From Myxococcota bacterium (GTDB lineage Bacteria; Myxococcota_A; UBA796; UBA2385), in assembly GCA_044344255.1 (NCBI GenBank), contig JBIJDH010000001.1, positions 192,001 through 256,000 of the forward strand: a stretch of 64,000 bases of DNA, written 5' to 3'. The notes under the pieces were generated by a model. The model saw only the letters and a program-made list of their open reading frames with translations. It searched no databases and was not told where the DNA came from. The position numbers were made by a program, and so were the translations under genes. Shown here one piece after another: positions 20,864 to 27,325 of this stretch. Every line of letters begins with the position of its first letter. Within the stretch, counting starts at the first letter, position 1.

Positions 20864-21113
20864 CCTGGATCGCGGAGGGGTCACGAGCCTCGACCCACCG
20901 GACCTCGAGAGGAGCTCGGCGCTCGGCGTTGGGACGAGCCCTGGCCACCGGGCCATCCGGCCGCCGCGACGACGTGGCGGAGGCACCCGCGGGTGCAGCC
21001 CCCCCGCGCGAGCGTCAGCCCACGCGACGGCGGGAGCCCTTCGCCGGATTCGAACCACGATGCAAGGGTCTTACCGGGCTCGGGGTGGTCGAATCACGCG
21101 GAGCGCCACCCCC

Positions 21114-21263
21114 TCGAACCCCCAAAAGTCAGGAAGGCCCGCCGAATCTCACGATTCTGACGGGCCTTCAGGAGGTTGGTCGGGGTCACAGAATGCATAT
21201 CGAACTTTCTGGCTCGACCCCAGGGGGTGGTGCAGCGAGCGCATGCTTGCTTTCGAGGCTGCG
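21114..21263. repeat. att-like junction A: arm X + core TGGTCGGGGT (21177-21186) + arm Y
   Basis: 21114-21186 matches 27185-27257 at 70/73 nt; 21177-21217 is identical to 22284-22324 over 41 nt. Confidence 0.9.
21134..21168 (-). terminator. Hairpin in arm X, terminator-like on the minus strand
   Basis: AAGGCCCG..GAATC / GATTC..CGGGCCTT, followed on the minus strand by a short T run. Confidence 0.55.
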
Positions 21264-21479
21264 ATCCGGCTGGATGTGGGACCTGGGAGGTGACGGGGTC
21301 CTGGGGTCCTGGGCGGCCGACCCCGCCGTGGCCGACGGGTGAGGGGCACTTGGTGGTGGCGCCCCACTGCTCGGCACCGACTCAGACCTCGGTGGGGCCC
21401 GGGAAGGTGCAAGCAGTCCCTAACTTCCGCCGAGCCCGAGCCATCGCCGCCGCGACGACGTGCCCGGGACGACGGCGCG

Positions 21480-21519
21480 TTGTCTTGGCGCCGCAGGTCG
21501 GGTATGATGAAGTCATACC
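21480..21519 (+). promoter_or_regulatory. TA promoter with operator palindrome
   Basis: TTGTCT-N17-TATGAT; inverted repeat GGTATGA-N5-TCATACC over the -10. Confidence 0.65.
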
Positions 21520-21532
21520 GCAGGAGAATGCG

Positions 21533-21814
21533 ATGGCCCACGCTGAGAAGCGCACCTTCAGCCTCCCCGCCGAGCATGCGACCTTCATCGACGAACAGGT
21601 CGCGTCGGGCAGCTATGCGTCCGCGAGCGAGGTGGTCCGCGCCGGGTTGCGCGCACTGCAGGAGCGCGACGCGGCCGTTGAACGATGGCTTCGCGAAGAG
21701 GTCGCCCCGGTCTATGACGCCATGAAGGCTGATCCTGGGCGCGCTCGGAGCATGGAGGAGGTCTTCGGTGCGATCCGTGCCCGACACGCCAAGACGCTTG
21801 CAGATAGCTCGTGA
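21533..21814 (+). CDS. parD: Type II antitoxin, ParD family (ribbon-helix-helix)
   Basis: SGSYASASEVVRAGLRAL motif; AGGAG RBS; GTGA overlap with the toxin. Confidence 0.88.
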   Translation: MAHAEKRTFSLPAEHATFIDEQVASGSYASASEVVRAGLRALQERDAAVERWLREEVAPVYDAMKADPGRARSMEEVFGAIRARHAKTLADSS

Positions 21815-24605: not shown

Positions 24606-24694
24606 GGCGCACCCGGGGCTGGCGCGCGGTCGGCCTGCCGATGAACGGCCTCGTCGTCGCCTGTCACTCCCCGTCCGCCCGCTCGCCCGCCGCG

Positions 24695-26908
24695 ATGCGC
24701 ACGCGAGGCCCCGGACCGCTCCCGTTCCGCTGGGTCGCGCGGTTAGTGTCGCTTCTGCTGTTGGCGAGCTGTGGGAAGCCCTCCACTGGCGGAGATGTGC
24801 CGCGGGACTCGGGGCCCCACGTGGACACCGCCGAGGACCACGACACGAGCCCCGCCGACGACACCGGCGGCGACGACACCGGTGGCGACGACACCGGTGG
24901 CGACGACGGGTTCGTCGACGGCACTGACATCAGCGCCCTGTTGCAGGAGCGGATCGACGTGCTCGGCGCCGCCGGGGGGGGAAGGATTGCGCTGCCGGCC
25001 GGCACCTTCCTGGTTTCGTCTCCCATCACCCTCAAGAGCCGGGTGTGGATCGAGGGCGAAGGCGAGGCGACGGTGCTCCAGACGGTTGCAGGGAGCCTGG
25101 AGGGGCTGGACGCCGCCCTGTTCCACTCGCGTGGCGTCATGCTCGAGGGGGCGTCCGTCCGACGGCTCCACGTCGAAGGGGGTGCCACGCCTGGACTGAC
25201 CGCGCTCTACCTGGAGGACGCCCGCTTCAACCTCTTCGACGACATCTCGGTGAGCGGCCTGTCGGACGGGACGTTGTACGTCGGCTACCCGCTCGGTGGC
25301 AGCAACGACTCTCTGGGCTCGAACATCAACAACTACGCCAACATCTTCTCCGACATGAGCATGGACGAGGGGCGGTACGGGCTGATTCTCCACGGGCTTC
25401 AGGATCCGGCGAGCGCAGACCCTTTGCCCAGCAGCGTGATCACCCTCAACAGCTATCGAGCCATCACCCTGAGCTCGATCTCCGGGATCGGAGTTCAGTC
25501 CGTGTCGTGGAGTGACAGCGAGAACTTCGACACGCTCCGGATCTCCGTGCGCGAGCCGGACGCCGTCGGACTCGACCTGCGTGATGCTGGCATCCTGCCT
25601 GGGCAATACGTAGGGGCCGCGAATTACCAGTTCGCCTGGACCACAATCGACGCGGCATCGCCGATGGATGTCATCGGCGTTCGCTTCGCTCCGCTCACCG
25701 GCGGTTTCTCGTTCCTTGGTCTGTCGCTGGGAGAGGGCGTCCAGTTCGATGATTCGGGGACACAGAGCTACTTCGCCGCCGGGACGTTCGCGGTGCCGAC
25801 GGCCGCGGGGACCTGTGACGGGTTGGAGGCGAGAGCGGCGCCGGCGGACGAGTTGCGGATCGGGCCACCTGCCGAGGGCGGCGCTAGCGAGCTCATCCAG
25901 GAGAGCATCGACGCGCTCGCCAGCGGAGGGGGCGGTGTGCTGCGGCTGACCGCCGGGGACTACCTCGTCGATCGTCCGATCGAGCTGGCGAGCGACGTGT
26001 GGATCGAGGGGGACGGGTTTGCGACGGTGCTCGTCCCTTCCAGCGCCGTGGAAGCGGTGTTCGAGAACTCGGGGAGCCTCTCCCGCGCTAGTATCTCCGA
26101 CCTCGCCGTGGACGGCTCGACGGAGCCGACCACCTGGGCCTTCAGCCTGTCGAACCCCCAAGAGGTCCTCGTCGCCAACATTTTCGGCACGCGTCTGATC
26201 TCCGGTGGCGCTGTGCGGGTCCGGACCACCGAAGCGGCCGTCGGCAACTGCTTCCAGAACCTCCTCTTCGACGAGGTTCGCGGGGGGATCGTGGTGAACG
26301 ACAACGCCGACGCACCGGCGGAAGCGACGTTCAGCGCCAGCGAGTTCCGCAGCATCAAGCTTCTTCATGTGGAGGAGTTGGGCATTGGGGTGCTACGCCG
26401 CGTGGCCGACAGTCTGTTCTCCGATCTGGTCATCTGGAATGGCCAGGGGGCCGCGACCGCCATCCTGGTTGGGAGCCCCTACCAGGTGGTGGGCGATCCA
26501 GACCTCCCGGGGCGCTCCGTGACCGGCCTGACCTTCTACAACGTCACCGAGACGATGGAGGGGGGCGGGGCGGCGCACATCTACGGCAACACTGCTTCGG
26601 CGGCGAATTCCGAGGAATCGATCGGAGTTCGTTTCTCCGACACGAGCGGCCATGCGCTCCTCGGGGTGTTCTATACATCCTGGTACTGGAAGAACCCGGT
26701 CATCGCGACGGGCTCCGACAATCTCACGATCGCCACGAATGTGAGCGAGGCACTCCGAGGCTCGTCCGACTGGTGGACGGCGTACGAATTCCCCATGTCT
26801 GGGTTGTACGAGTACGGGTGCACCACGCTGTGTACCGAACCGTTGGGCGACGTGACCTCCAAGGGGGTCGTCAACCTCGGCGAAGCGGGGGTGGCGTACA
26901 TGCCTTGA
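24695..26908 (+). CDS. Lipoprotein with two pectate-lyase-3/GH55-like beta-helix modules
   Basis: LLASC lipobox; GGDDT repeats; two copies of Q..ID....GGG...L.AG.(F/Y)LV..PI.L.S.VWIEG.G.ATVL. Confidence 0.7.
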   Translation: MRTRGPGPLPFRWVARLVSLLLLASCGKPSTGGDVPRDSGPHVDTAEDHDTSPADDTGGDDTGGDDTGGDDGFVDGTDISALLQERIDVLGAAGGGRIALPAGTFLVSSPITLKSRVWIEGEGEATVLQTVAGSLEGLDAALFHSRGVMLEGASVRRLHVEGGATPGLTALYLEDARFNLFDDISVSGLSDGTLYVGYPLGGSNDSLGSNINNYANIFSDMSMDEGRYGLILHGLQDPASADPLPSSVITLNSYRAITLSSISGIGVQSVSWSDSENFDTLRISVREPDAVGLDLRDAGILPGQYVGAANYQFAWTTIDAASPMDVIGVRFAPLTGGFSFLGLSLGEGVQFDDSGTQSYFAAGTFAVPTAAGTCDGLEARAAPADELRIGPPAEGGASELIQESIDALASGGGGVLRLTAGDYLVDRPIELASDVWIEGDGFATVLVPSSAVEAVFENSGSLSRASISDLAVDGSTEPTTWAFSLSNPQEVLVANIFGTRLISGGAVRVRTTEAAVGNCFQNLLFDEVRGGIVVNDNADAPAEATFSASEFRSIKLLHVEELGIGVLRRVADSLFSDLVIWNGQGAATAILVGSPYQVVGDPDLPGRSVTGLTFYNVTETMEGGGAAHIYGNTASAANSEESIGVRFSDTSGHALLGVFYTSWYWKNPVIATGSDNLTIATNVSEALRGSSDWWTAYEFPMSGLYEYGCTTLCTEPLGDVTSKGVVNLGEAGVAYMP
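24857..24907 (+). repeat. 15-bp coding tandem repeat (DDTGG)n
   Basis: GACGACACCGG(C/T)GGC x3. Confidence 0.7.
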
Positions 26909-27184
26909 GGGTCGTGGACCGCAATCGACCCGCCCTCTCGGCCGGCCGGGCAGAGACCACGTGTTGGACATCGGGCGGTTGCCGACGCCGCGGTTCTCTC
27001 CCCAGCCGTTGTCGGAGCCGACAGAACCAGCATTCGGCGACCTCCTCGACGACTTGACTGCGGCCAAGCCCAAGCTCGGAGACCGCCGCAACGGGGGCGG
27101 CGCTCGGCGGTGGTGTCGCCACGACCCTGAAGCGATTCGAACCACCTCACTCACATCGGCCGCGCGGGGAGCGATCCTGCTCCA

Positions 27185-27257
27185 TCGAACCCCCAAAAAT
27201 CAGGAAGGCCCGCCGAATCTCACGATTCTGACGGGCCCTCAAGAGGTTGGTCGGGGT
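27185..27257. repeat. att-like junction C: arm X + core overlapping the tRNA 3' end
   Basis: 70/73 nt identical to 21114-21186; hairpin at 27207-27237. Confidence 0.9.
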
Positions 27258-27325
27258 GAGAGGATTCGAACCTCCGACCTCCTGGTCCCGAACCAGGCGC
27301 GCTAGCCAGGCTGCGCTACACCCCG
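27248..27325 (-). tRNA. tRNA-Pro (anticodon CGG)
   Basis: CGGGGTG acceptor stem; anticodon arm CCTGG-TTCGGGA-CCAGG; GGTTCGAATCC T-arm; encoded CCA. Confidence 0.97.

Follow-up and report, generated by a model that had tools for sequence, protein, structure and literature searches.

The stretch of DNA analysed here (the window) comprises 64,000 nucleotides of a Myxococcota bacterium genome (GCA_044344255.1, contig JBIJDH010000001.1, positions 192,001 to 256,000), corresponding to 192001-256000 of contig C18 in an 8.18-Mb assembly that is 95% complete. Within it, a tRNA-Pro(CGG) gene with an encoded CCA end borders a tandem array of gene-bearing units. The reverse complement of the tRNA 3' end forms a 10-nt core, TGGTCGGGGT, which occurs in the window at 21177, 22284 and 27248, on the plus strand only. 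We refer to these sites as junctions A, B and C, and to the units between them as A-B and B-C (Table 1). Family searches covering the whole genome found no recombinase in the window. We consider it likely that recombinase-less cassettes have been stacked here against the CCA end of tRNA-Pro, each inserted in turn by a large serine recombinase (LSR) that a helper element provides. An earlier note, made from the sequence alone, had already proposed successive insertion of recombinase-less units at the tRNA 3' end by an enzyme from outside the units, and our data agree. We add that the enzyme is most likely an LSR whose gene spans its attachment site attP, and that one of the repeated arms, Y, is its detached tail.

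The junctions are mosaics, as the earlier note had described: arm X is joined to arm Y at A, arm Z to Y at B, and a second copy of X to the tRNA at C. With the core excluded, X is identical at 60 of 63 nt between A and C; the 70/73 given previously holds when the core is counted, as do the 41 identical nt of Y between A and B, which also include it. The bare core is common, with 79 copies genome-wide. A Y profile run across the 8.18 Mb gave four matches, each at a tRNA-Pro locus: two in the window, one behind tRNA-Pro(GGG) on contig C15 and one behind tRNA-Pro(TGG) on contig C26. Therefore, all three tRNA-Pro genes of the genome bear such units, and the arms are tied to tRNA genes and are not dispersed. 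An X profile built without arms from this genome matched junctions A and C at E 3e-26 and 3e-21, respectively. The tRNA was the only element recognised in an Rfam scan of the locus. The hairpins beside the cores, which had been proposed to end the tRNA transcript, do fold, at -25 to -38 kcal/mol (without shuffled controls), but they are absent from the output of a terminator scan, and their role in termination is therefore presumed rather than predicted.

Pfam bears out the ParD/ParE assignment in unit A-B. The description of the two genes of unit B-C as glycan-active lipoproteins stands in part: the second product has a weak pectate-lyase-like match (PF12708, E 2e-7) and weak polygalacturonase matches, but the MopE metal-binding motif is the sole recognised feature of the 683-aa product of the first, for which domain searches gave no confirmation of a glycoside-hydrolase label.

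Table 1. Features of the tRNA-Pro(CGG) array and complete helper elements of relatives (positions are those of the window unless a genome and contig are named).
Feature	Position	Strand	Remarks
Possible older third unit: MarR, LysR, GFA, aldo-keto reductase, LtrA	16038..20863		left boundary not found
Arm X at junction A	21040..21176	+	non-coding cassette right end; block GGATTCGAACC 21046-21056; second TCGAAC 21114-21119; hairpin 21133-21169
Core A	21177..21186	+	reverse complement of tRNA-Pro 3' end; crossover probably inside core positions 4-7
Arm Y at A	21187..21293	+	putative detached LSR C-terminal tail codons (attP right arm); TCGAAC at core position 24-29
ParD antitoxin, unit A-B	21533..21814	+	Pfam; sigma-70-like site 21480-21508
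ParE toxin, unit A-B	21811..22110	+	Pfam
Arm Z	22170..22283	+	right end of unit A-B; GATTCGAATC at 22177-22186; hairpin ~22242-22279
Core B	22284..22293	+	
Arm Y at B	22294..22370	+	second putative recombinase-tail remnant
683-aa lipoprotein-like gene, MopE motif	22554..24605	+	heads homologous units in four other loci
~740-aa secreted-looking protein	24686..26908	+	weak pectate-lyase-like match; no homologue among fetched loci
Arm X' at junction C	27130..27247	+	right end of unit B-C; GATTCGAAC at 27134; TCGAAC at 27185; hairpin ~27204-27238
tRNA-Pro(CGG)	27248..27325	-	last 10 nt = core C; T-loop gives TCGAAC at core position 19-24
Complete helper element G001:C2	188879-230929		42 kb, tRNA-Pro; LSR at tRNA end, tail at far end
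Complete helper element G082:C1	717551-765170		47.5 kb, tRNA-Val; layout like G001:C2

Read from the TGG of the core, arm Y encodes an in-frame peptide that corresponds to the last ~30 codons of an LSR and is conserved across the order. Entropy at the three codon positions is 0.53, 0.41 and 0.72 (30 arms), third positions varying most. In the relative G001, a 523-aa LSR with Resolvase, Recombinase and zinc-ribbon domains enters the core of tRNA-Pro(CGG) in the Y frame and then stops, and the single Y junction in the 51 kb fetched lies 42 kb from the LSR end. All 30 LSR loci returned in the order have the gene ending at the 3' end of a tRNA or transfer-messenger RNA (tmRNA) gene: 26 at tRNA-Pro (24 full genes, 2 partial), three at tRNA-Val and one at tmRNA. 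The open reading frame (ORF) runs in frame into the core in 28 of them and is frameshifted in 2. A protein search with the Y profile gave 61 matches, and nine of the 27 proteins retrieved are LSR C-terminal fragments followed by the tail. The sequences suggest that attP lies inside the LSR gene and that integration would leave the last ~30 codons at the far end, which would make Y the right arm of attP. In a predicted fold of one natural partial LSR with tail (P0014), the tail forms two helices at pLDDT 45-52, which is not interpretable. Scans of viral contigs gave no match to the Y pattern and three distant LSR loci, none of them informative for the tRNA-Pro site. The same LSR family has also switched to tRNA-Val, tRNA-Glu and tmRNA targets (L105, L106, L131, L147, L149, L151, L187).

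The G001 helper carries a primase/polymerase-like gene, which adjoins the LSR, as well as methylases, helicases and uncharacterised genes, with a short resolvase ~14 kb away from the LSR. No conjugation or capsid gene was recognised in the helper with Pfam, NCBIfam, PHROGs or Atlas. The helper, seen in G001:C2, G082:C1 and L120, is an element of 42-48 kb that also has a large SNF2-methylase fusion and a conserved block of uncharacterised genes; one of its Atlas neighbour clusters is partly viral. At L069:2639-18307, two large ORFs between helper-like genes and a Y junction match Tc-toxin subunit Pfam families. By eye, a 66-aa ORF in the genome of the window (G000:C15:100088-100288) resembles the start of a Tc-toxin subunit.

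An LSR matching that of the helper was not found in the assembly that contains the window. The nine Recombinase-domain matches of this genome include none that adjoins a tRNA-Pro gene. The LSR of this genome nearest to that of the helper (G000:C9:9160-10830, 44-45% identical) was considered as the cognate enzyme and rejected, as it ends at another core and has no tRNA beside it. Other LSRs, at C47, C56, the end of C18, C63 and C22, often lie at contig ends and are unrelated to tRNA-Pro; those on C47 and C56 are near-identical. The three PF00589 matches in the genome are a XerD-like protein, a XerC-like protein and a truncated fragment at a contig edge.

The position of a TCGAAC-type motif distinguishes the two types of site. 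It starts at core position 19, in the T-loop, in 55 of 55 tRNA sites and at core position 24 in 46 of 46 Y sites, most of them collected with a sequence pattern. LI integrase tells attB from attP by a 5-bp shift of its zinc-ribbon motif (PMC3783163), and the 5-bp outward shift in Y relative to the tRNA would fit this known offset, in the right arms only, the left side being inconsistent. Some junctions keep the core from position 4 only and some Y variants diverge at position 8; therefore, the crossover is bracketed to positions 4-7, and our best guess for the crossover dinucleotide is TC at positions 4-5. The left arms show no conservation between helper ends, cassette ends and empty sites, which would explain reuse of the tRNA-proximal hybrid site.

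The right arms have a different character. The earlier note had suggested looking for recombinase genes that end in arm X or Z; an origin of these arms as LSR gene ends was rejected, as among 67 right arms outside helper loci only 4 align to the 3' ends of 30 LSR genes and 63 do not. An LSR ORF was called upstream of the X hairpin in none of nine metagenome loci, several of which are short. Thirty-five of the 67 arms, including X at both A and C, form one family, seven form a second, and Z is a singleton. A GATTCGAA-type block lies 60-140 nt upstream of the core in 36 of 65 right arms, compared to 0 of 32 LSR ends, and is present at all three junctions of the window (-130 at A, -107 at B, -114 at C); outside tRNAs the genome holds only 32 copies of it. 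Mean pairwise identity among 18 arms with the block at -130 is 0.71 around the block, a value inflated by selection on that position and by the non-independence of related arms, 0.40 in the spacer and 0.32 upstream. In sequence, it is similar to a tRNA half-site that lacks the core, and we hypothesise that it is an accessory binding site. Of 32 LSR gene ends, 23 contain TCGAAC at -132, where it encodes Ser-Asn; the hexamer is used for these codons 181 of 554 times elsewhere. Loci L121 and L123 hold one cassette with two different hairpins, the switch falling at TCGAAC ~62 nt before the core, which suggests exchange between arms at this motif.

We examined how widely such units occur. Of 154 genomes of the order, 63 contain Y (177 matches in total, with at least three in each of 31 genomes) and 53 contain the LSR family. 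No LSR match was obtained for 26 of the 63 Y-bearing genomes, most of which are incomplete assemblies. In a sample of the phylum, Y was found in 17 of 301 genomes, 15 of them in the order and 2 in the class. Cutting from one Y to the next core in fetched loci of up to 20 kb gave 40 units, or 38 distinct complete units after removal of 2 duplicates. They measure 169-16601 nt (median 2784), and none has a convincing recombinase match, the sole match spanning 19 residues. The longest array places five units before the tRNA (L086), and in L180 and L185 units lie directly behind LSR ends. At least 15 of the 38 units carry toxin-antitoxin families, a count from the part of the ORFs scanned that omits the units on C15 and C26. 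The unit at tRNA-Pro(GGG) (C15:99801-102183) is a single Y-to-core unit with 2.3 kb of gene fragments; that at tRNA-Pro(TGG) (C26:45580-62257) is a single one of 16.6 kb, with a ParE-type pair just upstream of the distal junction, by eye.

Several units appear to have moved between lineages. In L073, L074, L093 and L123, the 683-aa gene opens the unit behind Y, at 89-95% nucleotide identity, compared to 64-78% between flanking core genes of those genomes and that of the window. Its copies then lead into different modules and right arms, at two tRNA-Pro genes, in keeping with the variable content among relatives that the earlier note had anticipated. L074, at tRNA-Pro(TGG), and L093, at tRNA-Pro(CGG), share a whole recombinase-less unit (90% over 2566 nt), and ParD follows Y in two more genomes (84-87%). 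Gene content within units is mosaic. These comparisons show signs of recent transfer of units in recombinase-less form, with which mobilisation in trans and in cis would both be compatible.

Metagenome runs from lakes, rivers and other freshwater hold DNA of the locus. Both units are present in four runs of four studies, none flagged as a possible source. Runs X3 and X4 have no differences in unit A-B (1110 nt compared) and 4 in unit B-C (4.5-4.9 kb compared); the rpe side, for comparison, has 27 (over 2730 nt) and 16 (over 2389 nt). The joints are where unitigs break. No run contig spans the whole array, and therefore the order of the units in those strains is not proven. X3 has two extra joint-bearing contigs of 8041 and 1396 nt, at host depth and lacking in this assembly, which may come from the other tRNA-Pro loci. 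The X3 joints 21247-22298 and 22369-27185 were considered as deletions and rejected, as undetermined sequence lies between.

In the mechanism that we propose, an LSR from a 40-50 kb helper element would insert cassettes one by one. Each cassette has a Y arm at one end and, at the other, a right arm with a hairpin (X or Z). In a free circle, the right arm-core-Y site would serve as attP and the tRNA end as attB. The enzyme would tell the sites apart mainly by TCGAAC, 5 bp further out in Y than in the T-loop, and would tolerate nearly any left arm, so that the tRNA-proximal junction could be reused and older units pushed outward. Excision would pair the tRNA-type site with any upstream Y-type site, so that blocks would leave on the tRNA side; circles of several units could go back in at a different joint and thereby alter the order. 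The right arm would double as terminator for the tRNA, and cassettes may travel either alone or on a joint circle with the helper. A more ambitious version, which we put forward tentatively, would make the array the serine-recombinase equivalent of an integron. Its cassettes would be purpose-built and have conserved attP arms of their own, in which a further copy of the tRNA half-site, ~60-130 bp upstream, would be an accessory element. At tRNA-Pro, the LSR of a visiting helper could, in trans, capture them, exchange them across families and change their order, and the swap of the 30-residue tail would switch between integration and excision.

Several points weigh against insertion by a helper LSR. 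Textbook serine integrases are not known to integrate via attL/attR, and reuse of the hybrid site is our assumption, drawn from the arrays themselves. The limit of 20 kb on the sampled loci left large autonomous elements out of the unit set, and the position of the motif in Y is partly fixed by the pattern used to collect most Y sites, although in this genome all four Y arms, located with BLAST and without that pattern, show it as well. A weak search found no full-length LSR bearing the tail, and two of the 27 retrieved tail-bearing proteins (P0012 and P0061) look like tyrosine recombinases. The circle joints that the earlier note had looked to in reads, as well as empty-site joints, were absent among the joints listed for the four runs, whose contigs drop rare forms.

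The units could instead have arrived as autonomous LSR elements that lost their recombinase in place and are now fixed, or passively moved by a neighbouring helper. We regard such decay, of the kind described for cis-mobilisable elements (CIMEs), as unlikely. A three-step model of it has been published (PMC5704250), and 15 of 31 Dehalococcoides ssrA islands that were described as lacking an integration module, with decay as the proposed origin (PMC3146451), have been read as CIMEs (PMC5704250). In the present data, the four right arms that are true LSR 3' remnants, the decayed cores of several junctions and the presence of both units in all four runs are in its favour. The Y arms do derive from an LSR gene, but the 63 non-aligning right arms do not fit such an origin, nor does the block that marks over half of these arms and no LSR end. 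Furthermore, the unit found at two tRNA-Pro genes has integrated at least twice without an LSR, although passive carriage alongside a helper would still be compatible. A tyrosine integrase aimed at tRNA 3' ends, with the LSR link incidental, is very unlikely to have built the array. Integrases that target tRNA genes are described as mostly tyrosine recombinases (PMC4383910), P0012 and P0061 end in the Y tail, so that a second integrase type may use the tRNA-Pro end, and some loci (L064, L066) have longer tRNA fragments. However, the tail is paired with an LSR in both complete elements, LSR fusions outnumber tyrosine fusions nine to two in the retrieved proteins, the two being explainable as hybrid array junctions, and the 5-bp motif shift fits what is reported of serine integrases (PMC3783163). 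The genome itself offers only the XerC-like, XerD-like and truncated tyrosine recombinases already mentioned.

The status of X at junction A bears on how many units were ever inserted. The earlier note had allowed that this X is the original chromosomal terminator, with just two insertions. Upstream of A, 83 kb of sequence gave no Y arm or other left limit for a third unit, and X or Y arms lie within ~1.5 kb of the LtrA homologue in 0 of 5 loci. These findings favour a native terminator, which we nevertheless consider extremely improbable: X at A is a full cassette-type arm, whose block at -130 is common to 18 arms of other genomes, and LtrA belongs to the accessory genes, being present in 6 of the 154 genomes of the order and in none of the 21 of the family. 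Because three apparently empty tRNA-Pro sites (L110-L112) carry hairpins unrelated to X, the best reading of X at A is that it closes an older unit on the right and that this unit has lost its left end to decay. The proposal of a third unit running leftwards from A therefore keeps its right end, a complete cassette-type arm, but lacks a left one. Dispersed REP/MITE-like repeats or an assembly artefact would account for the many copies of the core and for the unitig breaks; this has already been refuted and retains next to no probability, given arms confined to tRNA-Pro loci, both units in four runs of four studies, and joints that recur in 63 of 154 genomes.

Known systems resemble the array in part. 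The closest are the Dehalococcoides ssrA islands, which also lie in tandem at the 3' end of a stable-RNA gene, and whose LSR gene, DsiB, overlaps the att site, its C-terminus set by the neighbour or by circularisation and its stop codon unsettled (PMC3146451). The helper LSR of the relatives likewise overlaps att at its 3' end. In contrast to the ssrA islands, insertion here is aimed at the CCA end of each of the three tRNA-Pro genes, and in relatives also at Val, Glu and tmRNA, with tmRNA in just 1 of 30 LSR loci. As far as the published description indicates, a further difference is that the units here are small (median 2.8 kb) and mostly close with a conserved non-coding arm for which the LSR gene gives no alignment, and that recombinase-less units are shared across genera and across tRNA genes; the six-gene integration module that lies beside att in those islands was not seen in the G001 helper. 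CIMEs share the lack of integration or transfer genes, the retained att sites and stacking at a gene 3' end. They are defined as decayed integrative and conjugative or mobilisable elements, with tyrosine integrases in the tRNA examples described (PMC5704250), whereas here only 4 of 67 right arms are recombinase remnants.

The locus does not belong to the integrons, as "integron-like" in the earlier note might imply. Integrons are defined by the tyrosine recombinase IntI, attC sites and attI. The likeness lies in a polarised array of small cargo units, many of them toxin-antitoxin pairs, that grows at one end; the differences are that IntI and attC are missing, a tRNA replaces attI, the enzyme is probably a serine recombinase, and units hold one to many genes in both orientations. 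The best integron-integrase scores in the genome were 106 and 97 (cut-off 265), and an attC pattern (RYYYAAC...GTTRRRY) matched neither strand at 20500-27600, a test of that pattern only. Nor is the LSR a Ccr recombinase of the SCCmec type: its CcrA/B/C scores are 53-85 against cut-offs of 700-900, with CcrB at 85 against 900. The tyrosine integrase ORF of myxophage Mx8 is reportedly altered or split by its own att site. In archaeal SSV-type elements, integration into a tRNA gene alters or splits the integrase ORF (PMC7253208); those enzymes are described as tyrosine recombinases, whereas here ~30 LSR residues are swapped and all recognised domains stay intact. Phage-type LSRs (A118/LI, phiC31, Bxb1) share the Resolvase, Recombinase and zinc-ribbon architecture and the 5-bp motif shift (PMC3783163), but here attP appears to lie inside the gene, the left arms are highly variable and hybrid sites appear to be reused. 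Tycheposons are likewise tRNA-anchored islands enlarged by successive insertions beside the tRNA; each encodes an integrase of its own, which belongs to the tyrosine recombinases in 910 of 937 elements and to the LSRs in the other 27 (bioRxiv 2020.12.28.424599).

The design is thus a variant of a published kind; added here are the enzyme family and its target, the conserved non-coding cassette arms and signs of recent exchange of recombinase-less units. According to the 2015 Islander database paper, no serine recombinase is known to target tRNA genes (PMC4383910), against which stands an LSR family at tRNA genes in 29 of 30 loci. The word "tRNA" appears nowhere in the main text, as consulted, of an LSR survey (PMC10083194). 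The literature searched held no LSR family at tRNA-Pro CCA ends and no such cassette arms; older work may already note LSRs at tRNA ends.

Such arrays are probably a principal means for uncultured freshwater bacteria of this order to acquire and exchange accessory genes without integrons, the cargo including toxin-antitoxin pairs, secreted lipoproteins and metal-handling genes. They tie recombinase-less islands, which island finders skip as they need an integrase gene (PMC12424338), to a specific enzyme family. If the LSR needs little beyond the tRNA half-site, it would be a candidate for inserting DNA repeatedly and without disruption at a conserved tRNA end, and swapping the tail may offer a direct way to ask how an LSR might control direction.

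Two minor observations concern other sequences. L064 and L065, contigs of one genome, share 17 kb of apparently identical sequence, inverted between the two and accompanied by a partial copy of tRNA-Pro, either a duplication or a mis-assembly. Elsewhere in the window, tandem repeats of 21 nt (36599-36710) and 12 nt (37903-38038) look like low-complexity coding repeats.

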